DNA of 64,000 nucleotides from an uncultured Actinomycetes bacterium (GCA_903872155.1 CAIQJP010000042.1:83028-147027), one strand, 5' to 3'; positions 1,610-47,631 are shown, counted from the first letter of the stretch. Program-made: numbers and translations. Notes: generated by a model not told the origin, from the sequence alone.

Positions 1610-2203
1610 ATGGATGCAGTGATTGCCATTTTGTTACTCATTCCCGTGGCCTACATGCTTGGCACCTTCCCCAGCGCGGTCTTACTCGCGCGCAGTCGCG
1701 GTATCGATATCACCTCGTCTGGCTCCGGAAATCCTGGGGCATCAAATGTGGGACGGTTGCTGGGTCGCAAACTTGGGATTCTTGTTTTTGTACTTGACGG
1801 ACTCAAGGGAGCAATTTCGGTCGGCGTAGGTTTCGCGATTGCGGGTTACGCCGGAGCATTAGCACTGGCGTGTGCGGCTGTCGTCGGCCACGTCTTCCCG
1901 GTCACCCGAAAATTCAAAGGTGGGAAAGGTGTCGCGACGACCGGCGGTGCAATGATTGCGCTCTATCCCATTCTTGGTGCAGCGATGACATTGCTCTGGC
2001 TTATTACCGCCAAACTCACCAAGAAAGCATCGCTTGGTTCGTTAGCCATAGCGATCGGCCTTCCGATTACACAAATCATCATCGGTCGTCCTGCTGGCGA
2101 AGTACTGACTGGTGTTGGTCTGTGCGCCTTTGTTGTTTGGCGCCATATTCCTAATCTGAAACGACTTTTTTCAGGAAGCGAAAATAGCCTCAAGACAAAG
2201 TGA
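1610..2203 (+). CDS. plsY: Glycerol-3-phosphate acyltransferase PlsY
   Basis: 197-aa polytopic membrane ORF with PlsY signatures 'SGSGNPGASNVGR' and 'FKGGKGVATT'. Confidence 0.9.
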   Translation: MDAVIAILLLIPVAYMLGTFPSAVLLARSRGIDITSSGSGNPGASNVGRLLGRKLGILVFVLDGLKGAISVGVGFAIAGYAGALALACAAVVGHVFPVTRKFKGGKGVATTGGAMIALYPILGAAMTLLWLITAKLTKKASLGSLAIAIGLPITQIIIGRPAGEVLTGVGLCAFVVWRHIPNLKRLFSGSENSLKTK

Positions 2204-7322: not shown

Positions 7323-8099
7323 TCAGATGACCTTCAAACCTTCAAGGAAGGTCACGATCTTGCCGAATGTTTCGCCGTCATCTTCGATGACTTCACCAGC
7401 AGCACGAGCCTCGGCCTGTGCAACATTGCTGATTTGCTGACCAGCGCCAGCCCAGCCGACCGGAGTCACGCCAAGATCGGCAGCAGTGACTTCGTCAACT
7501 GGCTTTGACTTTGCAGCCATGATGCCTTTGAAGCTTGGGTAACGCGGCTCAACAACACCAGCAGTTACCGAGATGAGTGCGGGCAGCGGGCAGGTCACTT
7601 CGTCATAACCTTCTTCGGTCTGACGATCGGCCTTGAGAATTCCGCCTTCAATCGAAACTTTCTTCGCGAAAGTTACCGAAGGCAATCCGAGAACTTCAGC
7701 AATTTGCTCAGGAACAGTTCCGGTGTAACCGTCGCTTGATTCGGTTGCGGCGATAATCAAATCGGCACCACCCAAACGCTGAATTGCTGCAGCCAAAATC
7801 TTGGCGGTCGTGAGGGCATCTGAACCCTGCAATGCCGGATCGGACACAAGCACTGCTTTGGCAGCACCCATCGCAAGAGCGGTGCGCAAACCAGCGGTCT
7901 CGCTATTTGGTGCCATCGACACCAAGCTGACTTCACCGCCACCTGCTGCATCAACCAACTGCAAGGCCATTTCAACGCCGTAGCTGTCGGACTCGTCAAG
8001 GATCAATTTGCCTTCGCGCTTGAGCGTGTTTGACGAGGCGTCAAGAGCTCCGGGGTTGGCGGGGTCGGGGATCTGCTTCACACAGACGATTACGTTCAT
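7323..8099 (-). CDS. etfB: Electron transfer flavoprotein subunit beta
   Basis: Canonical N-terminus 'MNVIVCVKQIPD'. Start moved to the ATG at 8099, inside the longer ORF. Confidence 0.9.
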   Translation of the reverse strand: MNVIVCVKQIPDPANPGALDASSNTLKREGKLILDESDSYGVEMALQLVDAAGGGEVSLVSMAPNSETAGLRTALAMGAAKAVLVSDPALQGSDALTTAKILAAAIQRLGGADLIIAATESSDGYTGTVPEQIAEVLGLPSVTFAKKVSIEGGILKADRQTEEGYDEVTCPLPALISVTAGVVEPRYPSFKGIMAAKSKPVDEVTAADLGVTPVGWAGAGQQISNVAQAEARAAGEVIEDDGETFGKIVTFLEGLKVI

Positions 8100-8228
8100 A
8101 GTTCGCCATTCTTGCGGCTTGTGCACCGTTTCACACAACCCATCGGACATCTAAATAAGTGACTCCCGACCTAGCCCATCGGGTGTCGGCTGAACTCCTC
8201 GCCAAATGGGCTGGTACGGTCTCAGGCG

Positions 8229-9230
8229 GTGCGGATTCTGCTGGTCGTCAACTCCTTTGCCTCCTCGGTCACGGCGCGAAACACGGTCATCGTGCATCGG
8301 GCCTTATCGAGGCAACACGACGTGCAAATCGTCGAGACCAACCGTCGTGGTCACGCCACTCGTTTTGCCCAAGATGCCGCTCACAGGGGTATTGATCTGG
8401 TGATTTCTTTTGGCGGTGACGGCACCCTGAACGAAGTCGCCACCGGCGTCGCTGGCTCAGAGACTGCCCTTGGCGTTTTACCCGGTGGAAGCACGAACGT
8501 GTTCGCTCGCACCATCGGACTTCCGAATGATCCAGTTGCGGCAGCCTCGCTATTGGTTGCGGGACTTGAAGACCCCGAAGCAAACATTCGCCCAATTGGG
8601 CTCGGCCGCGTCAACGGGCGCTTCTTTTGTTTCCACACCGGTATCGGATACGACGCCGCAGTTGTGCGCACAGTTGAAACTCGCGCATCTCTCAAGCGTT
8701 GGGCCGGACATCCACTCTTCATTTATGCCGCGTTACATACGTGGCTCAGTAAATACGATCGTCACCATCCACACTTCAGCGTTGCTGCTGATTCGGCAAT
8801 TGGTGGTCCAGGTGGACTTTCAGATATTGAAAATCTGAACTACGACCCAACACGATTTGTTGATGATGGTTATTTCACTGTTGTCCTCAATACGAATCCG
8901 TATTCGTTCCTTGGTAACCGCCCACTTGACTTGTCGCCGGCAGCTGGTCTCGACAAACCACTTGTTGCAGTTACTTTCCGCACGATGTCCGCTATTGCAA
9001 TCATTCGTACGCTCGCCGGCGCACTCAAAGGTGGCGGAGTCACACCAAGCAAACACGTTGCGTGTTTTAACGATGTCCACGAACTCATTGTTGAAAACGC
9101 TCAACCATTCCCCTATCAAGTTGATGGCGATTACTTGGGCGAATCAACACGTTTACATTTCAGGCATGTGCCTGAAGCGGTGAAATTACTATTCCCTGTG
9201 CAGCCTGAAGTTCAGTCACTGAAAGATTGA
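8229..9230 (+). CDS. Diacylglycerol kinase family lipid kinase
   Basis: 'GGDGTLNEV' DAGK catalytic motif. GTG start. Confidence 0.85.
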   Translation: MRILLVVNSFASSVTARNTVIVHRALSRQHDVQIVETNRRGHATRFAQDAAHRGIDLVISFGGDGTLNEVATGVAGSETALGVLPGGSTNVFARTIGLPNDPVAAASLLVAGLEDPEANIRPIGLGRVNGRFFCFHTGIGYDAAVVRTVETRASLKRWAGHPLFIYAALHTWLSKYDRHHPHFSVAADSAIGGPGGLSDIENLNYDPTRFVDDGYFTVVLNTNPYSFLGNRPLDLSPAAGLDKPLVAVTFRTMSAIAIIRTLAGALKGGGVTPSKHVACFNDVHELIVENAQPFPYQVDGDYLGESTRLHFRHVPEAVKLLFPVQPEVQSLKD

Positions 9231-9919
9231 TCGCGTACTCGCATCGCGACATCAGGAAAATTCGTACAAATTCCATCAATACCCCACGAGATAAGTTCTG
9301 CCATACGTGAAGGATCGTCACAGGTCCAAGCATTCAAAGTCAGACCGTGGTGATGACACGCATCAATCGTTTCTTGAGTCACAAAGTTGACCCACGGGTG
9401 CAATGCACTATGTCCACTCTTGACGAGACCAGACAAAACTTCACCAAATTCTTCGGGGCGAACCCCAACTGTCAACCAGGCAGTGGCAATCGTCGGACGC
9501 AATTCCTGACATCGATCAATGGTTTCTCGGCGGAACGAAGAAATCAACCACTGCTTGTCACCTTCAGGGCGTTGAGCCAAACAAGCGATTGTCTCGTCGG
9601 CGATTGATTCGCTCTCATCAAAGTCTGGTTCTTCGGGATCATTCTTGATTTCAACATTGACCCACATCGGGACGCATGCATCAAGGGCCTCGTCAAGCGT
9701 GCAAACATCATCAGGTAATTCCGAATAATTCACTTGTGAAATGATTCGACCATCATCGAGTGTCGCATTGTGATGTATCACCAAAATACGATCAAGCGTT
9801 CGTCGCACATCAAGTTCAGCTGCGTCAGAACCCATGGAAACTGCACGTTTAAAGGCAGAAATTGTGTTTTCCTTCTCAGCGGCCGAGGCACCTCGATGAG
9901 CGAGTACTTGAGTTCCCAT
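9212..9919 (-). CDS. Glycerophosphodiester phosphodiesterase
   Basis: 'LAHRGAS...EKENT' GDPD N-terminal motif. Start set at the ATG at 9919 (MGTQVLAHRG). Confidence 0.85.
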   Translation of the reverse strand: MGTQVLAHRGASAAEKENTISAFKRAVSMGSDAAELDVRRTLDRILVIHHNATLDDGRIISQVNYSELPDDVCTLDEALDACVPMWVNVEIKNDPEEPDFDESESIADETIACLAQRPEGDKQWLISSFRRETIDRCQELRPTIATAWLTVGVRPEEFGEVLSGLVKSGHSALHPWVNFVTQETIDACHHHGLTLNAWTCDDPSRMAELISWGIDGICTNFPDVAMRVRDQSFSD

Positions 9920-10130
9920 ACCTTGAGTTAACTCTGAATACACACCAACCCGCACAATTATTTTTCTTTCTAGCAACAAAAAATTTGTCCTGTGACGAAA
10001 AACTTAGACCCGACCCCTTGCGTGTTCACCAGTTGTTTGCCAACCTTGAAGAGTCAGTTAATACAAGTCATCAAAGTTCTCGTCAAGAGAACAACAACCC
10101 CTCAACCCCCTAACTCGCCTGGAGCACCCC

Positions 10131-10448
10131 GTGTCAATCCTTGCCTCTTCACTTGCCCTTGGTTCCGCCGATTATTCATGGCGCGATGAAGCCGTCTGCC
10201 GTGACACCGATCCCGATTTGTTTTTCCCAATCGGCACGACCGGCCAAGCACTCCTTCAGATTGATCGCGCTAAGCAAGTTTGTAACGAATGCACAGTTCA
10301 AGTGAGCTGTCTTGAATTCGCACTTGAGACCAACCAAGACTCTGGTGTCTGGGGTGGAACTTCCGAGGAAGAGCGTCGCGATATTCGTCGCAAGATTGCC
10401 GCTCGCAATCGTGCTGCCCAATTGGCAGCTCGTTCATTTGCTTCCTGA
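10131..10448 (+). CDS. whiB: WhiB1-like Fe-S transcriptional regulator
   Basis: Four Cys (C...CNEC-x5-C), a 'GVWGG' turn and a basic tail. Layout and sequence closely resemble mycobacterial WhiB1. Confidence 0.9.
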   Translation: MSILASSLALGSADYSWRDEAVCRDTDPDLFFPIGTTGQALLQIDRAKQVCNECTVQVSCLEFALETNQDSGVWGGTSEEERRDIRRKIAARNRAAQLAARSFAS

Positions 10449-10459
10449 AGATTCGTGAA

Positions 10460-11941
10460 CTAGCGCGGTAAGCGCAAGTCAACAACTGTTCCATCGCCTC
10501 GACGATGGGCTTCAATTCCGACTGCAATGAAATCTTCCGGAGCGCCGGCGCGAATTGAAATTGAACCGTTGAGTTCGGTCGTTACCAAAGTGCGCACGAT
10601 GGACAACCCGAGACCAGTTGCACCATTCAAATCAAAAGAAGGATCAAGTCCGCGACCATCGTTAATGACTTTGATCGCAATTTCATCATCGTCACCGCCC
10701 AGTTCAACTACGACTGTTCCGCCATCGCTTCCCTCGGGGAATCCGTGATCAACCGCGTTTTGCAAAAGTTCAGTGAGCACCACTGAAAGCGGCGTAGCGA
10801 TTGTTGCGGGCAAACGTCCACCATCACCTTGCACAATAAATCGCACCGGACGATCAGGTGATTGCAATCCTTCTTCGGCCAATCTCATGAGTGGTCGTAC
10901 GATTTCAATGAACGCCACATCTTCACCAGTTTCGCGTGACAAAGTTTCATGCACGAGAGCAATGGTTCGAATACGCCGCACGCTTTCTTGAACTGCTGCT
11001 TTTGCTTCAGGAGATTCAAGGCGTCGAGCCTGTAAACGCAACAATGAAGAAATTGTCTGCAAGTTGTTCTTTACTCGGTGGTGAATTTCGCGAATGGTTG
11101 CATCTTTAGACAACAGCATTCGGTCACGTCGACGCACTTCAGTGACATCACGAATGAGCAACATGCCACCCGTAATCACTTCTGTTGAAATGATCGGAAT
11201 ACAACGCACGAGCAAAGTCACATCAGCGGTTTGATCAAATTCTTCAATGACCGGCTCAAAACGTTCAAACGCTTGGCGCACCGGGCTGTCAGCAAATCCG
11301 AGTTCACTTAACGATTGACCGACAACATTCGCAGTGATTCCGACGCGGTGAAGAGCCGAAACTGCGTTTGGAGACGCGTAACGAATAATGGCGTTTTCGT
11401 CCAGTACTACAGCTCCGTCGCCAACACGCGGAGCAGCACTCAAGTCGGCAGCACGACCCGGGAACGGGAAAGCACCTTCGGTGATCATTTCGGCGATTCG
11501 CTGAAAGATCGACAGGTACGTTCTTTCAAGTTCGCCGGGTTGACGACTGGTCTTTGACGACCATTCACGAGTTAACACGGCAACTGGACCATCAGCACCC
11601 CGCACCGGAATCGCCAGTACGTGCACAGAATCAAACATTTCGTGCTTATGCAATTCGGCTTCACTAATCGAACCTGTTGACATTGCTCGATCCAGCAATT
11701 CTGATTCAGCCGGATTAGCCAATGATTCAACTAAGTCGGTGCGATAGATGGTTTGACCAGTAGCTGGCCGCACTTGGGCCCCCACGATCCATTCACCCTC
11801 GAGATTTCTCAAGTACAAAATCATGTCGGCGAAACACAAGTCGGCGAGCATGCCCCATTCGCCGATCAACTGCTGCAGATGAGCGCTGTCGTCTTTGGAA
11901 ATTTCAGTATGTTGGCGAAGAAGTTCGGCAAGTGTTGCCAT
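10460..11941 (-). CDS. pdtaS: PdtaS-type sensor histidine kinase (GAF/PAS-HisKA_2-HATPase)
   Basis: H-box 'EIHHRVKNNLQ'; ATPase boxes 'ELLQNAVDHG', 'NDGRG', 'GLGLSIV'. Adjacent to whiB1, as in mycobacteria. Confidence 0.85.
   Translation of the reverse strand: MATLAELLRQHTEISKDDSAHLQQLIGEWGMLADLCFADMILYLRNLEGEWIVGAQVRPATGQTIYRTDLVESLANPAESELLDRAMSTGSISEAELHKHEMFDSVHVLAIPVRGADGPVAVLTREWSSKTSRQPGELERTYLSIFQRIAEMITEGAFPFPGRAADLSAAPRVGDGAVVLDENAIIRYASPNAVSALHRVGITANVVGQSLSELGFADSPVRQAFERFEPVIEEFDQTADVTLLVRCIPIISTEVITGGMLLIRDVTEVRRRDRMLLSKDATIREIHHRVKNNLQTISSLLRLQARRLESPEAKAAVQESVRRIRTIALVHETLSRETGEDVAFIEIVRPLMRLAEEGLQSPDRPVRFIVQGDGGRLPATIATPLSVVLTELLQNAVDHGFPEGSDGGTVVVELGGDDDEIAIKVINDGRGLDPSFDLNGATGLGLSIVRTLVTTELNGSISIRAGAPEDFIAVGIEAHRRGDGTVVDLRLPR

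Positions 11942-17157: not shown

Positions 17158-17158
<1 letters not shown>
17113..17158. terminator. Perfect 22-bp inverted repeat, probably a bidirectional terminator
   Basis: AAATTGTTTGAGGCCTGCCAGC-AA-GCTGGCAGGCCTCAAACAATTT lies between the convergent esterase gene and the tRNA. Confidence 0.7.
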
Positions 17159-17234
<76 letters not shown>

Positions 17235-17294: not shown

Positions 17295-18020
17295 TTAACC
17301 CAGGTCGGCGATCGCGCGCGGAGCGCAGAAATCGATGACTTGCACCAACTTTTCGGCCAAGCGACGAGACGCCATGAGTAAGTTCGCATTGAACTGATCG
17401 GCGGTTGCAGTGTGATGGTCAACCAGATCGGTAATCGCCTTGAGCGCCATCACCGGAATCGCCATCATTTCGCAGACGTAGGCCACCGCTGCAGCCTCCA
17501 TTTCTTTCACTGCTCCCCCAGAAGCGGCGATCAATCGTCGATCGTCGTCATTCTCGTCAAGCGAGTTACTGGTCGTCACGACACCCAATTTGAGATTCAA
17601 TGCCTGTGCAAGACCCGCCGCAGGCACGGCTGGATATGAACCAATTCCATATTCTTCAAATCCCGGAATCGCGATTCGCCGATCGTGATGAACAAACCTC
17701 TGATCACTCACGTACACATCACCGATCTCTGTACCTTGACTCATCCAGCCACCAGCAGTGCCAGCAGTAATCAAAAGATCGGGGTTATATCGATCGGCAA
17801 CAAAATATGTATTGAGCGCCGCGGCCTCAGTGCCGATCGAATCAACTCCATGTCGCTTATCGCGTCCATTGACCGAAATGATGACGCGACACCCGTTGCG
17901 GTTCGCCTCAAAAAATTTAAAAGGCATCAACGGGATCGCCGGAATCGCCTGAGCGCCAAGTTGCGTCAAAATCGGCGAGGCTTCAGAAGCCATGGCCATG
18001 ACGACCGCGATGCATTTCAT
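17295..18020 (-). CDS. Nucleoside phosphorylase-family nucleosidase (MTA/SAH nucleosidase-like)
   Basis: 241 aa with the PNP_UDP_1-type pattern ('ITAGTAGG', 'KEMEAAAVA'). Confidence 0.65.
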   Translation of the reverse strand: MKCIAVVMAMASEASPILTQLGAQAIPAIPLMPFKFFEANRNGCRVIISVNGRDKRHGVDSIGTEAAALNTYFVADRYNPDLLITAGTAGGWMSQGTEIGDVYVSDQRFVHHDRRIAIPGFEEYGIGSYPAVPAAGLAQALNLKLGVVTTSNSLDENDDDRRLIAASGGAVKEMEAAAVAYVCEMMAIPVMALKAITDLVDHHTATADQFNANLLMASRRLAEKLVQVIDFCAPRAIADLG

Positions 18021-18036
18021 GCCTTGATAGTAGGTG

Positions 18037-18774
18037 CTAGTCGTAGGAGCGACGGAGCATTAGGCGAGTCCACAATTGCAAAAGCTGTAGTGCCGAGCGA
18101 GAAATTGCGGGGATGCGAAAAAACTGCGATTTCCCATGAGGACGGTGATAGTGGCTCACACCAACTTCAACAAAATTCGCATGCACACGATTGAGCGCAT
18201 GCATCATTTCAACACAGATCACACCGGTCGTTGACTGCAGGCGGACTTTGCCTAACACCGCATTTCTGATCAAACGAAAATCACAGTCAGTATCTCGAAC
18301 TGGCAAGCGGAAAAGGAACCGCACCCCATGGTGATATACCCGACCAATAATGCGTCGATGCAGGGGGTCGCCACGACCGATCTTGAATCCCTGAATGACA
18401 TCAGATGATTCAGTCACTGCAGCGATACAGCGAGTGATTTCACGAGCGTCGTACTGTGCATCGCCATCGGTATAGAAAACCCACTGTTTGGTTGAAGCCA
18501 CGAAACCAGACAACAGCGCACCACCGTAACCACGATTCACTTCATGATTCACGATTCGAAGCTCTCTCACTTCGTTTTGAAGTTCTTGCAAAACCTGCAG
18601 CGAGTTGTCGCTTGATCCGTCATTGACGACAATGATTTCAAAATCAGAAACTGCTTCAACTAGAGATGCACGAACATCCCTAACCATCTTGCCAATCGAT
18701 AATGCATCGTTGTAACAAGGAAAGAACGCTGATACCGATGACACCAATGGATTTTGTGCGCGCACTGTTGTCAT
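18037..18774 (-). CDS. Family 2 glycosyltransferase (polyprenyl-phosphate sugar synthase, ArnC/DPM1-like)
   Basis: 'IIVVNDGSSDNS', 'YTDGDAQY' (DxD) and 'NRGYGGAL'. Start set at the ATG at 18774, which overlaps the upstream stop as ATGA. Confidence 0.8.
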   Translation of the reverse strand: MTTVRAQNPLVSSVSAFFPCYNDALSIGKMVRDVRASLVEAVSDFEIIVVNDGSSDNSLQVLQELQNEVRELRIVNHEVNRGYGGALLSGFVASTKQWVFYTDGDAQYDAREITRCIAAVTESSDVIQGFKIGRGDPLHRRIIGRVYHHGVRFLFRLPVRDTDCDFRLIRNAVLGKVRLQSTTGVICVEMMHALNRVHANFVEVGVSHYHRPHGKSQFFRIPAISRSALQLLQLWTRLMLRRSYD

Positions 18775-19826
18775 AGATCTATGTCTACTAGTGCCGCACA
18801 AACATCATCAACTTCATCATCTGTGAGTTCAGGAAAACAAGGAAGGCTCACGCATTCATTCGCCCATTTTTCAGCAACAGGGCACGCAGCAGAGACAAAC
18901 TGCTGAAGTGCAGGTTGCTGTGTGAGTGCTAACGGATAATGAATCCCGGTAGCGATTTCGTGCTTGAGCATTGCTTGGCGGAATTCATCTCGATCGGGTG
19001 TCAGGGCTACTGCTAAGTGGTACACGTGATTGACATGACGGGCTTGCCAACGAATATTGGGATTGGCAAGTTGATAACGATTCGCGATATCGCGACGTCG
19101 TTGATTTCCAAGTTCTAATTGAGGGAGCACGATATTGAGCCAAGCGGCTTCAATTTCACTCATACGGTGATTCTGACTGACCTCAATGTGTACGTACTGT
19201 TCGCTTTGACCATGTACGCGGAGTCGGCCTAAACGTTCAGCAACTTCTGGATCGTCGGTGACAACCATTCCACCGTCACCAATACCCCCAAGATTTTTGG
19301 TCGGATAAAACGAATACGCGCCGATTGAACCAGCCAAGCCTTTTGTCGCTCCATGGCTTTGCGCACAATCTTCGACAACCTTCACTCCTAGATCTGTCAA
19401 CTTGCCCAAATTGTCAACCGGTCGACCGTACAGATGGACCGCGATAACAGCCTGAGTTCGTTCGGTCATCGCTTGCTCGACGAGCTCAAGATCTATCGCC
19501 GCGGTTTCGTCATCAATATCGACGATCACTGGTCGGGCACCAACAGCACATACTGCAGATGCAGTCGGCACGGCTGTCATCGCCGGCACGATGACTTCAT
19601 CGCCTGGTCCTATCCCGAGAGCCGCCAAACCGAGCTGCAATGCCGAGGCACCACTCGATACTGCAATCCCATATTTTGTGCCAGCGAAATTTGCAAATGA
19701 CTTTTCAAACTGACTCGTTTGCGAACCAAGCAAAACAGAACCACTGTCTAGAACTTGCCGAGTTGCAAGAGCGAATGCATCGGCATTGGCTTCTAATTTC
19801 CTGGACAAATCAATCAGAGGTACCAC
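18771..19826 (-). CDS. DegT/DnrJ/EryC1-family PLP sugar aminotransferase (ArnB-like)
   Basis: Catalytic-Lys motif 'SFYPTKNLGG' and a 'HLYG' region. GTG start overlaps the SDR stop by 13 nt. Confidence 0.85.
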   Translation of the reverse strand: MVPLIDLSRKLEANADAFALATRQVLDSGSVLLGSQTSQFEKSFANFAGTKYGIAVSSGASALQLGLAALGIGPGDEVIVPAMTAVPTASAVCAVGARPVIVDIDDETAAIDLELVEQAMTERTQAVIAVHLYGRPVDNLGKLTDLGVKVVEDCAQSHGATKGLAGSIGAYSFYPTKNLGGIGDGGMVVTDDPEVAERLGRLRVHGQSEQYVHIEVSQNHRMSEIEAAWLNIVLPQLELGNQRRRDIANRYQLANPNIRWQARHVNHVYHLAVALTPDRDEFRQAMLKHEIATGIHYPLALTQQPALQQFVSAACPVAEKWANECVSLPCFPELTDDEVDDVCAALVDIDL

Positions 19827-20818
19827 GGATGCCTCCGATAAAAGTCCAAAGTTTGTTCAACACCATCAGCGAACGCTACTTGCGGATTCCAATTCAATAA
19901 GCGATGTGCCTTTGCATAATCACCGCTAAAGCCACCAATATCAATTCGGGCAAGTTCTTCAGGCCAAGGGATACAAGAAACTGTCGAACCCTCTCCTGCC
20001 TTTGCAACAACTAATTCCGCTATCTGTAAAAGGCTGAGGACTTCCGTGTGACCCAGATTGATGACCTCTCCCGGATTTACTGCACCAGCTGCAACTTGTA
20101 GGGCCGCCTTTCCTAAAGCCTCAACGACGTCAGTGATATACAAGCAATCGCGTAATTGCTGTCCATCACCAAATACTTCGAGTGGCAAGCCCTTCATTGC
20201 TCGTGCCAAAAACACAGGCAAAAAACCCAATCCTGTCTTTTGCAAACTTTGATTTGGTCCAAAGACATTGCTGAGGCGCAATGACACCGTTTTTACACCG
20301 TGAACAGTTCCATACAGACGGTGATAGTTCTCTCCTGCCAATTTGTTCACGCCATTGATGTCACGCGGCACTGTTGGGTGTTTTTCATCAACGGGCAAGT
20401 ACTGAGGTGTTCCGTACACCTGCCGAGTTGAAGTATGCACAACAACTGCTAACGGTTGACAGCGACGCAATGATTCAAGAAATCTCAATTGTGACGTCAC
20501 ATTAAGTTCAGCATCACGTATTGGGTCCACCATTGACTCGTGATGGCTCACTTGGCCGGCGATATTAAAGACAAAATCAACTCCATCTAGAAGTTGTTCA
20601 GCTAATTCATCATCGGCAATGTTTCCTTTGATGACACTGATTGCCGAGAGTGACGGGTTGATATTACGTTCATCTCCCCCATGCTGTTCGATCAAGGCGT
20701 CAAGAACTCGCACTTGTGCCCCGGCCACCGCCAGAGAATTGGCCATGTTCGATCCGATGAAGCCGAGCCCACCAGTTACAAGACAGGTAGATCCCGCGAA
20801 TTGGTTCAAGGCACCCAT
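19814..20818 (-). CDS. Extended SDR (NAD-dependent epimerase/dehydratase family) with a non-canonical active site
   Basis: Rossmann motif 'VTGGLGFIGS' and 'HTSTRQVYG'. The expected PxxxYxxxK is 'PRDINGVNK', so Asn replaces the catalytic Tyr. Confidence 0.8.
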   Translation of the reverse strand: MGALNQFAGSTCLVTGGLGFIGSNMANSLAVAGAQVRVLDALIEQHGGDERNINPSLSAISVIKGNIADDELAEQLLDGVDFVFNIAGQVSHHESMVDPIRDAELNVTSQLRFLESLRRCQPLAVVVHTSTRQVYGTPQYLPVDEKHPTVPRDINGVNKLAGENYHRLYGTVHGVKTVSLRLSNVFGPNQSLQKTGLGFLPVFLARAMKGLPLEVFGDGQQLRDCLYITDVVEALGKAALQVAAGAVNPGEVINLGHTEVLSLLQIAELVVAKAGEGSTVSCIPWPEELARIDIGGFSGDYAKAHRLLNWNPQVAFADGVEQTLDFYRRHPWYL

Positions 20819-21933
20819 GCTGACCTCACCACGTTGACGGCCAAGAAAAGAAATGAACTTCCAGCAACGACGAAAAAGATTGACCGATACATCTTTGACC
20901 AGTTCATCAATGAAATCGCCACCATCACCAACAATGGTGCGGTCAATGAAACATACCGAGCCATGCCCTCAACTCCGAGTAGCAATGAAGGTGCCAACAA
21001 AACAAAAGAAATGACATGCCACCAATGAGGAATTTTCTTGATGGCCGGCAACGCAACTGCAGCAACGACGACAAAAGTTGCGACATGCAAAACGATCGCT
21101 GGTCGTTCAAACGGGTGTGACAGGAAATCAACAATCGTCGTTTCTAGCCACGTATTCTTGGCATGAACAAATGCAAGTGCATCGCCGGTTTTGTTATGGC
21201 AATAAATCATCCAGATCGCGACAAATGCCAGTGATGGCGTCGCGACGATGACAGCGTTCTTCAAACTTCGTTGCACAAACCAAACTGCAGCGAGAAGCGC
21301 TGGCAAAATCAAGATGCCGTTTGGTCGGCTGGCACTCACCACTAAGAGCAACAGTCCGACGAATAACCATTGCCTATTCGTATTTTTGTTGTTGACTACT
21401 CGCCATTCAATACGATCAACAAGAACCAAAAGCCATATCAACGCCGCGACAAACATGCTGTCGCTATACGACAACACTTGGCCAACGGCGCCTGGCAAAA
21501 GTGCGAGAGTCCAAACTGCATATTTCGCTACGGTTTCGCCTTCGCGTCGTCGAACTAACTCATGCATTCCGATGAATGCAAAAAGAGCACATATCCACGA
21601 AACGAAAATCAACGATGGACCAACCGGCGCTCCAACTCGCGTGAACAAATCGGCCACAAAGGGGTAGAGCGGCGAAAAGGGCCAGGCCGTTCCGAAATTT
21701 GGCAACGCTCCATTTGGATAACCAATCGTCATGATGATGCGGTACCAGCCGCCATCCATATAGGTCAAACCAAAAGTGTTGAACCACTTTCCTTGCGCCG
21801 TTGGCCAGACCACAAGACCAATACATCCGATGACTCGCGAAACAATCCACGCCAAAATCGGTATTTGCCACAATCGAACAGCAGATTTGAGCCGGGGCAA
21901 AACGGGAGTCACTGAAGCGTCCACGATCCCCAT
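20806..21933 (-). CDS. GT-C-type polytopic membrane glycosyltransferase (PIG-V/DUF2029-like)
   Basis: 375 aa with ~10 TM segments. 'MDGGWYRIIMTIGYP...WPFSPLYPF' resembles the PIG-V-type mannosyltransferase motif. Confidence 0.6.
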   Translation of the reverse strand: MGIVDASVTPVLPRLKSAVRLWQIPILAWIVSRVIGCIGLVVWPTAQGKWFNTFGLTYMDGGWYRIIMTIGYPNGALPNFGTAWPFSPLYPFVADLFTRVGAPVGPSLIFVSWICALFAFIGMHELVRRREGETVAKYAVWTLALLPGAVGQVLSYSDSMFVAALIWLLVLVDRIEWRVVNNKNTNRQWLFVGLLLLVVSASRPNGILILPALLAAVWFVQRSLKNAVIVATPSLAFVAIWMIYCHNKTGDALAFVHAKNTWLETTIVDFLSHPFERPAIVLHVATFVVVAAVALPAIKKIPHWWHVISFVLLAPSLLLGVEGMARYVSLTAPLLVMVAISLMNWSKMYRSIFFVVAGSSFLFLAVNVVRSAWVP

Positions 21934-21993
21934 AGGTTCTAGTGTAAGAGTTTTATGACGTGAAGGTAAGAGAACTTACGTTTCATTCGGAAA

Positions 21994-22749
21994 ATGGTGA
22001 TCACAGTTATGGACGCAGCCGAATATCGCCGTATGGCCGACGTTGAACTGACCCATTGGTGGTACCAAGCAACCCGCACATTGCTTCGCCAGTTCATTAT
22101 TAGTGAATTACCAAAAGATGAACAATCTTCTTCTCGACGTTTCCTCGATGCCGGATGTGGCACCGGAGCAACTGGTGCCTGGCTAGCCGATTTCGGCTCT
22201 GTCATCGCCCTAGATACCGAGCGTGAGGCGCTGAATTTATACTGCCAAGCGCATCCCGAAGCGCAATTGATTCACGGAGATATTTCAGCAATTGATCTGC
22301 ATGATGACTTCGTCGACACCGCACTCTGCGTCACAGTTTTGTACCACGGCGAAGTGTCCAGTCCTGCCGCCGCGGTCCGCGAAATGGCACGAGTCGTCAA
22401 GCCTGGTGGTCTCGTGTGTCTGATGGAGCCAGGGGTTCGTTCACTTCGTCGTAGCCATGATCGAGTCACCCATGCAGCTCGTCGATTCAGCCGTCGCGAT
22501 CTTGAACAACTCGCGCAACAGGCCAACCTCGACATCGTTCGGTCAACTGGCGCGTATTCATTCCTCATTCCACCGGCATGGCTCAAATCAAAAATAGAAA
22601 AAAGAGAATCCACCAGCGACCTTGACAACAATGCTTCCGGACTGTTCGGGATTCTTGGATTCATTGCTCGGATCGAGCGACAACTATTACGCGTGGTCTC
22701 ACTCCCCTTTGGTCTCAGCGTGATCGTGATCGCCCGCAAAAAACTTTGA
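21994..22749 (+). CDS. Class I SAM-dependent methyltransferase
   Basis: Motif I 'FLDAGCGTGA' and 'VKPGGLVCL'. Divergent from the glycosylation operon. Confidence 0.8.
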   Translation: MVITVMDAAEYRRMADVELTHWWYQATRTLLRQFIISELPKDEQSSSRRFLDAGCGTGATGAWLADFGSVIALDTEREALNLYCQAHPEAQLIHGDISAIDLHDDFVDTALCVTVLYHGEVSSPAAAVREMARVVKPGGLVCLMEPGVRSLRRSHDRVTHAARRFSRRDLEQLAQQANLDIVRSTGAYSFLIPPAWLKSKIEKRESTSDLDNNASGLFGILGFIARIERQLLRVVSLPFGLSVIVIARKKL

Positions 22750-45537: not shown

Positions 45538-47631
45538 TTACACAGTGCAGTCATACAGCGAGTCAGAAATTTCGGAGACAACGGTACACGTCTCTTCAAT
45601 GTGCGCGATGAGGCCGCTGCCTCCACCCGGACCAGCACCGTTTTGCAAAAGTGCGTAGCGAACCTCGCCTGCAGCAACCAATTTGTCCCATGCGGCATCA
45701 TCAAGAATGACATCACCGCCAGAGAAACCTCCTAAGGCCATCACTGCTTCTCCGGTGTCGATAATGATTTGTCCTGCTGTCATTGCAGAAGGAGTCGCAA
45801 CCAACCATTTTTCGTTTTCTCGGTGCGCAACGAGGTACTTCGTCACTGCTGAATCGTCATTGGAGAAATTCGTCCTACCCATTAATCGAGCACCTCCAAA
45901 CGACGTTGTAACCGGCGACGCATATGGCAAATTCGCGTTGAGTCCTGCCTTCAGCGATCCCATCGTCCAAACAGCAGGTACTAACAATGTTGCAAGAACG
46001 AGGCCTGCAATGCGCGGACCTAACTTCCAGCGACCTAATACGCCGACGACTAAAAGCAAGGCACCCAGTATCGCTACAGCGATCGAACACTGAGTCGCAA
46101 TGTCCCATGAAATTCGACGGGCAATGACAGCAGTCGTTGCGCCACTTGCCGCAATCCCTCCACCGAGGACCGCAAGAGTCCAACGACTGTTCCACAAATC
46201 GCGCACGACCCCCGTTCCAGCACCGATCAGAATTGCAAGTGGGGGGACAATGCTTGCAACGTAGTAAGGGTGGACGATTCCTTTCGTCATGCTAAAAATC
46301 ACTGCACCACTTAAGAACCAGACTGTTGCAGCCAAGACCAGCGGATCGCCAAAAATTCGACGTCTGCGAACCCAGAGTGCTGCCAGCAGACCCAGAATAC
46401 CGGGGACAACCAACCAGCCGATTTGAGTTCCAAGATCTGCATTGAGAAGTCGCAAAATTCCAGGAGAACCACCTGAGAAGCCAGTCATTCCATTCGCGAT
46501 ACCAAGCATTCCTCCGCCACGGTCGATCGGTACTGCAATGTTTTCAGTTTGCGACATATCGCCGTACCCATCAACGCGCGATGGCAGTTCACCTCCACTG
46601 CCATCTGGCAATTCACCTGCGAAACCGGGCGGCATTTCGCCTTCAAAACCCATCGGCGGGAATTGCATCTCTTCACCTGGTACGAAACCTGCGGGTGGTT
46701 GTCCGTAAATACTGAAATCCTCGGGCATTGCGCCTTGACGATCAGAACTTCCACCATCACCCGTTGGTGGACCTTCAAAAGAACCTCCATCAGGAGCGGA
46801 GCCACTCGGCCCACCAAGCACACCCATATCTCCTTCAACTTGATTAACGCCGTTGCGTTCGAATGCAAGCTGATATGCGCTATTCGTGGCGCTTGAACCG
46901 ACATATGGTCGTTGATCTTTCGGGGTGAGATCAACGAATGTGAACCAAGCAAGAGCACTCACAGTTGCAATTGCTAGTCCTCCGACCAGCATGATTGAAC
47001 GCTTTTTCCAAGTCAACTTTGATGCCAACCCGAAGGCCACGGCGACTGCGACAAGCACCGGAGTGGCCGCCAACATTTTCGTTGTAAATGCCGCTCCAAA
47101 AAGAAGACCAGTGGCAACCCACCATTTCCATTTTCCTGATTCAGTCGCTCGAACTCCGGCGAATACAACCGCCGTCATGAAAAAAATCAAGATGGCATCA
47201 GTGTTATTGGAATGATTCACCATGACAGAAATCGGTGAAATCGCAAGTGCGAGTGCCCCAATCGTTGCACCAATCCTGCCCCATCTCGGAGCAATTAATA
47301 CATAAACAAGAATGACAGCGCCAACTCCAGCCAACACTTGTGGAATGAGCAGAGTGAGTGAATGGAACCCAAAGACACGAACCGCAAGAGCTTGAATCCA
47401 CATTGACATCGGTGGTTTATCAACCGTGACAAACCCGCGAGTATCTAAAGCGCCAAACCAAAAGGCGTGCCAACTTTCGCTCATGCTGCGAACTGCCGCC
47501 GAATAATACGTGTTACCCCAACCCACTGTTCCCAATGCCCACGAAGACAAGATCGCGGAGACTGCAATCACTACACCCAAAGACCAATGCCGACGAATAG
47601 CGACAATCCACTGAGCTCTTATTTTCTGCAT
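45538..47631 (-). CDS. Family 39 glycosyltransferase (ArnT/PMT-like) with a Gly/Pro-rich insert and a C-terminal extracytoplasmic domain
   Basis: 'TVDKPPMSMW' loop-1 motif, more than 10 TM helices, and a ~130-aa G/P/E-rich insert. Confidence 0.8.
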   Translation of the reverse strand: MQKIRAQWIVAIRRHWSLGVVIAVSAILSSWALGTVGWGNTYYSAAVRSMSESWHAFWFGALDTRGFVTVDKPPMSMWIQALAVRVFGFHSLTLLIPQVLAGVGAVILVYVLIAPRWGRIGATIGALALAISPISVMVNHSNNTDAILIFFMTAVVFAGVRATESGKWKWWVATGLLFGAAFTTKMLAATPVLVAVAVAFGLASKLTWKKRSIMLVGGLAIATVSALAWFTFVDLTPKDQRPYVGSSATNSAYQLAFERNGVNQVEGDMGVLGGPSGSAPDGGSFEGPPTGDGGSSDRQGAMPEDFSIYGQPPAGFVPGEEMQFPPMGFEGEMPPGFAGELPDGSGGELPSRVDGYGDMSQTENIAVPIDRGGGMLGIANGMTGFSGGSPGILRLLNADLGTQIGWLVVPGILGLLAALWVRRRRIFGDPLVLAATVWFLSGAVIFSMTKGIVHPYYVASIVPPLAILIGAGTGVVRDLWNSRWTLAVLGGGIAASGATTAVIARRISWDIATQCSIAVAILGALLLVVGVLGRWKLGPRIAGLVLATLLVPAVWTMGSLKAGLNANLPYASPVTTSFGGARLMGRTNFSNDDSAVTKYLVAHRENEKWLVATPSAMTAGQIIIDTGEAVMALGGFSGGDVILDDAAWDKLVAAGEVRYALLQNGAGPGGGSGLIAHIEETCTVVSEISDSLYDCTV

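Follow-up and report, generated by a model that had tools for sequence, protein, structure and literature searches.

A coupled gene cassette with a tyrosine-less SDR and a GT-C-fold transferase in an uncultured actinobacterium is a candidate system for lipid-carried amino-sugar glycosylation

In bacteria in which it has been studied, glycosylation outside the cytoplasm with lipid-carried sugars affects resistance to antibiotics, recognition by phages and the charge of the envelope. In the Arn pathway (PmrHFIJKLM), which places 4-amino-4-deoxy-L-arabinose (L-Ara4N) on lipid A, a short-chain dehydrogenase/reductase (SDR) and a DegT-family aminotransferase make an amino sugar, the family 2 glycosyltransferase (GT2) ArnC loads it on polyprenyl phosphate and a GT-C transferase acts outside the cytoplasm. 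In the Gtr-type three-component systems (GtrA/GtrB/GtrC, CsbB/GtcA/YfhO and PgfS/PgfM; PMC11127046, PMC7389260), a GT2 lipid-sugar synthase is likewise combined with a variable GT-C. The mycobacterial arabinogalactan galactosamine pathway pairs a short polyprenyl-phosphate amino-sugar synthase without transmembrane (TM) helices, PpgS/Rv3631, with the GT-C Rv3779. Here, a cassette of GT-C, SDR, DegT and GT2 genes with a divergent methyltransferase gene is described from a 64,000-nucleotide stretch of DNA, referred to as the window, from an uncultured Actinomycetes bacterium (GCA_903872155.1, CAIQJP010000042.1:83028-147027). By the names of close homologues, the organism belongs to the Ilumatobacteraceae, class Acidimicrobiia. 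The probable role of the cassette is to synthesise an unusual amino sugar, couple it to a lipid carrier in the membrane and transfer it to an extracytoplasmic target.

Fold and homology identify a GT-C, a GT2 of the polyprenyl-phosphate type, a pyridoxal-phosphate (PLP) aminotransferase, an NAD-binding epimerase-like SDR and an S-adenosylmethionine (SAM)-dependent methyltransferase, and the genes are coupled. On the minus strand, the GT-C-fold glycosyltransferase (20806-21933; 375 aa, about 9-11 TM helices) is followed by an extended SDR with a 4-epimerase-like fold (19814-20818), a DegT-family PLP sugar aminotransferase (18771-19826) and a GT2 of 245 aa (18037-18774). The GT2 coordinates are taken from an ATG; a TTG at 18801 is a mechanical alternative start. 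As read from the sequence, the GT-C and SDR genes overlap by 13 nt (20806-20818), the SDR and DegT genes by 13 nt (19814-19826) and the DegT and GT2 genes by a 4-nt ATGA stop/start (18771-18774). The GT-C ends in W-V-P-stop, and the SDR ATG at 20818 sits 13 nt inside this end, preceded by the Shine-Dalgarno-like motif GGTGAGG with a 5-nt spacer. The SDR ends in W-Y-L-stop, and the DegT GTG at 19826 again sits 13 nt inside, preceded by GGAGG with a 5-nt spacer. An orthologous cassette with 55-70% protein identity (L001) contains identical 13-, 13- and 4-nt overlaps, and the DegT/GT2 overlap is also present in a further cassette (L006). Because the overlaps are kept in L001 at this level of identity, the coupling of the genes is conserved and is not a chance arrangement. 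A preliminary description of this DNA had reported four overlapping minus-strand genes at these positions and had read them as one tightly coupled operon. Both points hold when the open reading frames (ORFs) and all three junctions are re-read.

The strongest single argument for donor synthesis comes from natural gene fusions. In a marine Actinomycetota metagenome-assembled genome (MAG) and in Candidatus Solincola, uninterrupted ORFs of about 1,190 aa (L097:4438-7983 and L112:4395-7976) join an N-terminal YfhO/PMT_2-type GT-C to a GT2. The GT2 part is orthologous to the GT2 of the window and is placed after the last TM helix, on the cytoplasmic side. Each fusion is directly upstream of an SDR lacking the catalytic tyrosine and a DegT gene. 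The fusions argue that the GT-C uses a donor synthesised by the GT2.

The membrane protein matches Pfam PMT_2 at 32 bits (cut-off 26.1). Its AlphaFold2 (AF2) model, from a 24-sequence alignment, has a pLDDT of 84.6 and a pTM of 0.86. In a Foldseek search of the PDB with this model, the best 39 matches are all GT-C enzymes, among them STT3/PglB/AglB, ALG9/3/12, ArnT (5f15, TMq 0.58), AftD, Pmt4, EmbB and PimE. The protein is therefore a GT-C, as first proposed, and is a member of no solved family. A sequence search against PDB chains returns nothing meaningful, and only the fold search is informative. In the 24 homologues, Asp60 is invariant within M-D-G-G-W-Y of the first outer loop, as are the motifs YSD (156-158), SRPNG (202-206) and GxEGxARY (320-327). 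The family is small: a search of 1.84 billion representatives gives 70 clusters at E <= 1e-30. The earlier suggestion of a PIG-V-like protein is not supported: in the test for PIG-V/Gpi18-like proteins (GT76), Mannosyl_trans2 (PF04188) is not matched, and PMT_2 is the sole match at E <= 0.01. One remote homologue carries the JGI name 'Gpi18-like'. The host genome contains two distant paralogues of the small GT-C (G000:C18:1026-1760 and G000:C63:1018-1899), and the paralogue on contig C63 matches Mannosyl_trans2 at 21.3 bits, below the cut-off of 22.4. The window also contains a second, larger GT-C of 697 aa (45538-47631, minus strand), with a PMT_2 match of 98 bits and a YkcB_C domain.

The GT2 matches Pfam Glycos_transf_2 at 85 bits. 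Its best PDB match is ArnC (3e-16, residues 11-221), which covers the whole catalytic domain, followed by dolichol-phosphate mannose synthase (DPMS) and GtrB. The alignment with these enzymes includes the D-x-D-x-Q and H-H-x-x-R-x-x-G-x-S segments. The best NCBIfam models are ArnC (70 bits, cut-off 529), PgfS and PpgS (41.5 bits, cut-off 370), all below cut-off. By homology, the protein is of the polyprenyl-phosphate sugar synthase type, which agrees with the preliminary description, and it is predicted to have the corresponding activity. No TM segment is found in it. A C-terminal amphipathic helix, SQFFRIPAISRSALQLLQLWTRLMLRR, is kept across phyla with the pattern SQFFR..IARS..QLL.LWWRL..RR.

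The aminotransferase matches Pfam DegT_DnrJ_EryC1 at 316 bits, and its PLP lysine lies in SFYPTKNLG, which aligns with the corresponding motif in 7B0D and DesV. Against PDB sequences it scores 285 bits with 7B0D, 230 with DesV, 227 with QdtB and 214 with WbpE, but 161-178 with ArnB structures. The NCBIfam ArnB model gives 192 bits (cut-off 631). The enzyme is thus nearer to C3 aminotransferases than to ArnB, contrary to the ArnB parallel drawn before. The 7B0D protein is from Archaeoglobus veneficus, where its gene is part of an FdtA (3,4-ketoisomerase)-hexapeptide acetyltransferase-DegT operon (L141, 4940-7116). This is a classic C3-aminotransferase context, and 7B0D is most likely an FdtB/QdtB-type dTDP-3-keto-6-deoxyhexose aminotransferase. 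All of the best solved DegT relatives are therefore C3 enzymes, and from these relationships the cassette enzyme probably places the amine at C3 of the sugar. The 7B0D entry is named 'Glutamine--scyllo-inositol transaminase', and members of its family from Thermococcus, Pyrococcus and Methanocaldococcus show 72-82% identity. An FdtA-type 3,4-ketoisomerase (PF05523) has no match in the host genome, and no such family recurs beside the genes in other loci.

The SDR matches Pfam Epimerase at 148 bits and also GDP_Man_Dehyd. In alignments with PDB sequences, the Rossmann motif is intact, Thr129 and Lys159 of the catalytic triad are present and Asn155 (in PRDINGVNK) is opposite the catalytic Tyr. 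The protein has STRQVYG where dehydratases have STDE and decarboxylases TSE. Asn155, STRQ and the NAD-binding residues are invariant among the orthologues. Of the 120 database proteins closest to the SDR, 115 have the Asn, as do 68 of 78 SDR homologues across phyla. Given the conservation of Asn155 and STRQ, these changes are not signs of decay. The AF2 model has a pLDDT of 85.5, with low confidence in the loop around residue 155. Its best Foldseek match is Mth375 (TM-score 0.86), followed by PelX, WbgU, WbpP and Rv3634c (range 0.81-0.86). The NCBIfam ArnA model gives 30.8 bits (cut-off 777). Since the SDR has neither the catalytic Tyr nor the residues that dehydratases and decarboxylases use (Asp/Glu or Ser/Glu), the analogy with ArnA fails. 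STRQ and GQxSHxDSM are subfamily-specific motifs. Speculatively, Arg132 of the former and His92 of the latter, both invariant, could supply the missing chemistry.

A divergent sister group of this SDR is found in L115-L118 and L120-L123 (SDR at about 8001-8970 where the flanks are full). These sequences retain the Tyr but have Asn or Gln instead of Lys in YxxxK (Y-E-I-S-N/Q). The hosts are Acidobacteriota, including Thermoanaerobaculia, as well as Syntrophorhabdus and 'delta proteobacteria'. A DegT partner is usual in the sister group, and an orthologous GT2 or methyltransferase is mostly absent.

The limits of the cassette are seen in a genome of the same genus (G163, 97% complete), where neither the GT-C nor an SDR orthologue is found. 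At the syntenic site of this genome, a nucleosidase and a coiled-coil gene are 53 bp apart and are followed by UPF0182 and a DivIVA-like gene. Precisely five genes are missing: the GT2, DegT, SDR, GT-C and methyltransferase genes. The unit of presence and absence is thus these five genes, which form an accessory and self-contained unit with the divergent methyltransferase as a member. The class I methyltransferase gene (21994-22749, plus strand; Pfam Methyltransf_11/25) had been noted as divergently transcribed from 21994. Its position and direction are as given, but it belongs to the unit: besides being absent together with the other genes from G163, its full-length orthologues (27-58% identity) are beside the SDR/DegT/GT2 genes in 39 loci from many phyla. 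Its profile finds only generic class I matches in PDB and NCBIfam, TylM1, DesVI and CalS10 among them, and N- and O-methylation are not distinguishable in this way. The 60 nt between the GT-C and methyltransferase starts (21934-21993) presumably contain a shared promoter region. A promoter and terminator scan gives fewer hits than shuffled sequences, and no sigma-70-type consensus is found in this interval. The G+C content is 0.48-0.50 across the cassette (18000-22000) versus 0.52-0.55 in the flanks, which fits an accessory gene set with a patchy distribution. No repeats are found at the cassette borders in the comparison with the empty site, and the difference between the two sites may stem from either insertion or deletion.

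The nucleosidase gene (17295-18020; Pfam PNP_UDP_1) lies 16 nt downstream of the GT2 gene, where the preliminary description had placed it. A role in the pathway was considered, either in a methylthioxylose (MTX)-like route from methylthioadenosine (MTA) or in recycling of S-adenosylhomocysteine (SAH), and is rejected: the gene never accompanies the module elsewhere and is retained in G163. It is a bystander rather than a partner of the operon. A tRNA-Met gene (CAT; 17158-17234, minus strand) is just 3' of it and closes the co-oriented string of genes.

Within the Acidimicrobiia, the gene order of the cassette recurs in other contigs amid unrelated flanks, with the methyltransferase usually divergent from or adjacent to it. 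Across these cassettes, identity is 50-77% for the SDR, DegT and GT2 proteins and falls to about 30% for the GT-C. This contrast is typical of a conserved donor part joined to a part that evolves fast and is specific for its acceptor. In a count over 401 genomes of the class, the GT-C family (counted at a best E <= 1e-45, set at a clear score gap) occurs in 30 and an SDR orthologue in 41; 29 genomes have both (Fisher p = 1.8e-33, with no correction for relatedness). The conservation of the neighbourhood proposed earlier as a check is thus found in gene order, overlaps and co-occurrence. In several of these genomes the GT-C and SDR genes are not adjacent, so that one donor may serve unlinked GT-Cs. 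One genome is an exception. In G131 (97% complete), the methyltransferase, GT-C and GT2 genes are kept (L030 = G131:C9:196000-215000, at 8040-10795), an SDR orthologue is found nowhere in the genome and no DegT gene is found within the 19 kb fetched around the locus. A sugar of other origin than the SDR-DegT pair may therefore also be a substrate of this GT2 and methyltransferase.

In one group of Acidimicrobiia (L004, L005, L006 and L007, at about 7800-8000), the cassette is divergent from mftA-mftB-mftC. A link with mycofactocin was considered and is rejected: mftC of the host genome (G000:C42:78806-79816) lies shortly before the start of the window, some 21 kb away from the cassette, and the other cassette loci are without mft genes. 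The proximity seems to reflect lineage synteny that was later disrupted by a rearrangement, not a functional connection. A PlsY-like gene of the window (1610-2203) is also syntenic with the L004-L007 loci.

The donor part of the cassette is not an actinobacterial peculiarity. In a scan for the SDR signature that used one genome per species, at least 560 loci encode a relative of the SDR. These loci are from many phyla, including Actinomycetota, Chloroflexota, Acidobacteriota, Verrucomicrobiota, Planctomycetota, Gemmatimonadota, Myxococcota, Binatia, Nitrospirota, Bacteroidota, several Proteobacteria and others. Neighbours were counted in 43 kept loci with at least 3.5 kb on either side of the SDR. 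A DegT gene is beside the SDR in 41 of the 43 (40 on the same strand), an orthologous GT2 (>= 40% identity) in 24, a methyltransferase in 25 and all three partners in 19. When neighbours are clustered across 89 loci, only the four families of the module recur broadly, in 73, 50, 48 and 39 loci, and no flippase, formyltransferase, deacetylase, RmlB or isomerase recurs beside the module. The core of SDR, DegT, GT2 and methyltransferase is best regarded as an old module for donor synthesis that many lineages share and combine with different GT-C partners. The accessory five-gene form is specific to some Acidimicrobiia, and the four-gene core is shared across phyla.

In most loci, a large polytopic protein is encoded beside the module. 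Eighteen of these proteins were scanned: five match YfhO, three PMT_2 and one GT87, all of which are GT-C families, and nine are unmatched. A profile comparison of the window GT-C family with three unnamed partner membrane proteins gives no similarity.

In the proposed route, the tyrosine-less SDR would act on a nucleotide sugar, probably a UDP-hexose or UDP-N-acetylhexosamine (UDP-HexNAc), and would give a keto-sugar, most likely a 3-keto sugar. The SDR is the candidate source of this keto-sugar because it is the tightest partner of DegT and because no FdtA-type isomerase is found in the genome or module. Its pairing with an aminotransferase also implies a net keto-sugar output rather than epimerisation. 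The DegT enzyme, assigned to its family by homology, would transaminate the keto-sugar to a 3-amino sugar, the position being predicted from its relatives. The methyltransferase would modify the sugar, possibly by N-methylation of the new amine. Such a step would pull the reversible transamination forward and would substitute for the formylation/deformylation pair of the Arn pathway. At the membrane surface, the GT2 would transfer the sugar to polyprenyl phosphate, and a flippase would bring the lipid-linked sugar across the membrane. The small GT-C, with Asp60 of its first outer loop, would then use this donor on an envelope acceptor. The 'cationic cell-wall decoration' suggested in the preliminary description is a guess, and the amine may be methylated.

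A more specific proposal for the SDR is offered tentatively, and is on balance doubtful. The tyrosine-less family, with its Thr-Asn-Lys triad, could be a new kind of nucleotide-sugar enzyme that delivers a 3-keto sugar without a cupin isomerase or a glucose-fructose oxidoreductase (GFO)-type oxidase, either through oxidation at C3 itself or through a 3,4-keto isomerisation carried out on the SDR scaffold. Together with the C3 aminotransferase, the methyltransferase and the GT2 without TM helices, it would then give a new polyprenyl-phosphate-linked (methyl)amino sugar. This sugar would be a common donor for diverse GT-C proteins in more than 10 phyla, in envelope or protein glycosylation.

Several observations weigh against synthesis of an amino sugar and its transfer from a lipid carrier. 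Without its catalytic Tyr, the SDR may be incapable of sugar oxidation, and model confidence is low in the loop around Asn155. The assignment to C3 rather than C4 rests on a similarity ranking and the gene context of one relative, and profile searches cannot separate N- from O-methylation. The gene content of G131 implies that the methyltransferase need not act on an amine made by DegT. No GtrA (PF04138) is found in the 97%-complete host genome in a search to which control genomes respond, and the small multidrug resistance (SMR)-type flippase family PF00893 is matched only at 20 bits, below cut-off, elsewhere in that genome. Outside this lineage, only about half of the partner membrane proteins are recognisable as GT-C. 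All NCBIfam matches are far below equivalog cut-offs.

The alternatives differ from amino-sugar transfer on a lipid carrier in the sugar made or in the place where it is used. The same machinery could carry a 4-amino-4,6-dideoxyhexose (viosamine- or perosamine-like) made from a 4-keto-6-deoxy sugar supplied by the host's own RmlB; the SDR would then be inactive, an epimerase or a helper without redox function. A genuine dTDP-glucose 4,6-dehydratase (420 bits) is encoded elsewhere in the host genome, the regiochemistry of the DegT family is not safely readable from sequence and the loss of Tyr fits a non-oxidising role. However, the SDR-DegT pair is the tightest link of the module (41 of 43 loci) and no RmlB or isomerase recurs alongside it, which suggests that the SDR itself feeds DegT. 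The invariant NAD-binding residues of the SDR and the C3 chemistry of the best DegT relatives also speak against this variant, which is considered unlikely. A cytoplasmic use of the sugar is regarded as quite improbable. In that case, the SDR, DegT and methyltransferase would supply a nucleotide amino sugar that the GT2 passes directly to an acceptor in the cytoplasm or membrane, for example a glycolipid or an elongating polymer. The GT-C would do other work, for instance with a different lipid-linked donor. The lack of TM helices in the GT2 and the empty flippase search of the host genome (GtrA; SMR above cut-off) agree with such a use. An orthologous GT2 is absent from 17 of 41 full-flank SDR-DegT loci, so that the sugar is used in other ways too. 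Nevertheless, the full catalytic domain of the GT2 aligns best to ArnC, DPMS and GtrB, its amphipathic C-terminal helix is conserved and it is fused to YfhO-type GT-Cs in two lineages. All GT-C enzymes characterised to date use lipid-phosphate donors (PMC11127046), which also argues against cytoplasmic use.

A true Arn-type pathway has very little probability. The SDR would here make UDP-4-keto-arabinose from UDP-glucuronate and DegT would make UDP-L-Ara4N; the GT2 and GT-C would then bring Ara4N to its acceptor in the envelope. Among NCBIfam models, ArnB is the best for the DegT protein and ArnC for the GT2, ArnT is among the GT-C fold matches and UDP-glucose dehydrogenase-type genes are present in the host genome. 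Against this, the SDR lacks the Tyr and the Ser-Glu pair, scores 30.8 bits with ArnA where 777 is the cut-off and has 4-epimerases as its fold neighbours, and DegT scores C3 aminotransferases above ArnB. Neither within the cassette nor next to it is there a formyltransferase, an acetyltransferase, a deformylase or a small flippase, as reported before, and no ArnE/F match passes its cut-off in the host genome.

If the amino sugar is made and carried on lipid as proposed, the cassette represents a compact donor-making module common to many mostly uncultured phyla. A literature search found no description of this module or of the tyrosine-less SDR family. The SDR has lost a residue thought indispensable for SDR chemistry, and the enzyme could add a new route to keto- and amino-sugars. 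The identity of the sugar and its acceptor would reveal surface chemistry of abundant freshwater and soil Acidimicrobiia, Acidobacteriota, Chloroflexota and Verrucomicrobiota. The presence or absence of the five genes within one genus is a clean natural comparison for this purpose.

Compared with known systems, the cassette shares the overall logic of the Arn pathway, as the preliminary description had stated; gene order, co-occurrence and the two GT-C-GT2 fusions support it, and ArnC is the best solved match of the GT2. The detailed parallel with an ArnA-type SDR and an ArnB-type DegT is not upheld. ArnA is a UDP-glucuronate decarboxylase with Thr-Tyr-Lys, Ser/Glu and Arg, whereas the cassette SDR is epimerase-like and without the Tyr. 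ArnC has two C-terminal TM helices and the cassette GT2 has none. The cassette also adds a methyltransferase, and its host is monoderm and has no lipid A. On five grounds the cassette is not a member of the Arn pathway: it lacks an ArnA-type SDR, a formyl cycle, an ArnB equivalog, the helices that anchor ArnC, and ArnE/F.

The SDR is most similar in fold to UDP-hexose and UDP-HexNAc 4-epimerases (Mth375, PelX, WbgU, WbpP and the GalE Rv3634c), with which it has in common the Rossmann motif and two triad residues, Thr and Lys. It differs from them in the Asn at the place of Tyr, and the complete Ser/Thr-Tyr-Lys triad is not found. The best solved DegT relatives, DesV, QdtB and the enzyme in an FdtB context, are from the pathways to 3-amino-3,6-dideoxyhexoses and to desosamine or mycaminose (QdtA/QdtB, FdtA/FdtB, DesV/DesVI and TylB/TylM1). 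The combination of an aminotransferase with a SAM-dependent methyltransferase recalls DesV/DesVI and TylB/TylM1, with generic similarity of the methyltransferase. These pathways differ in their cupin 3,4-ketoisomerase, which is not found here, and in their product, which is directed to an antibiotic aglycone or O-antigen; the cassette product would be directed to a lipid carrier.

The PpgS/Rv3779 pathway is an actinobacterial precedent for a short amino-sugar synthase without TM helices that works with a GT-C. Its sugar is from UDP-GalNAc, with no dedicated transamination and no methyltransferase, and the GT2 of the cassette is far below the PpgS cut-off. Compared with the Gtr-type systems, the cassette contains its own SDR, DegT and methyltransferase, and the host genome is without a GtrA-type flippase. 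The other two components are present, namely a GT-C-fold transferase and a GtrB/DPM1-type GT2 coupled to it. In the Gtr-type systems, as in this cassette, a conserved donor part is combined with a fast-evolving and exchangeable GT-C, and the partners of the module in other phyla include YfhO-type proteins.

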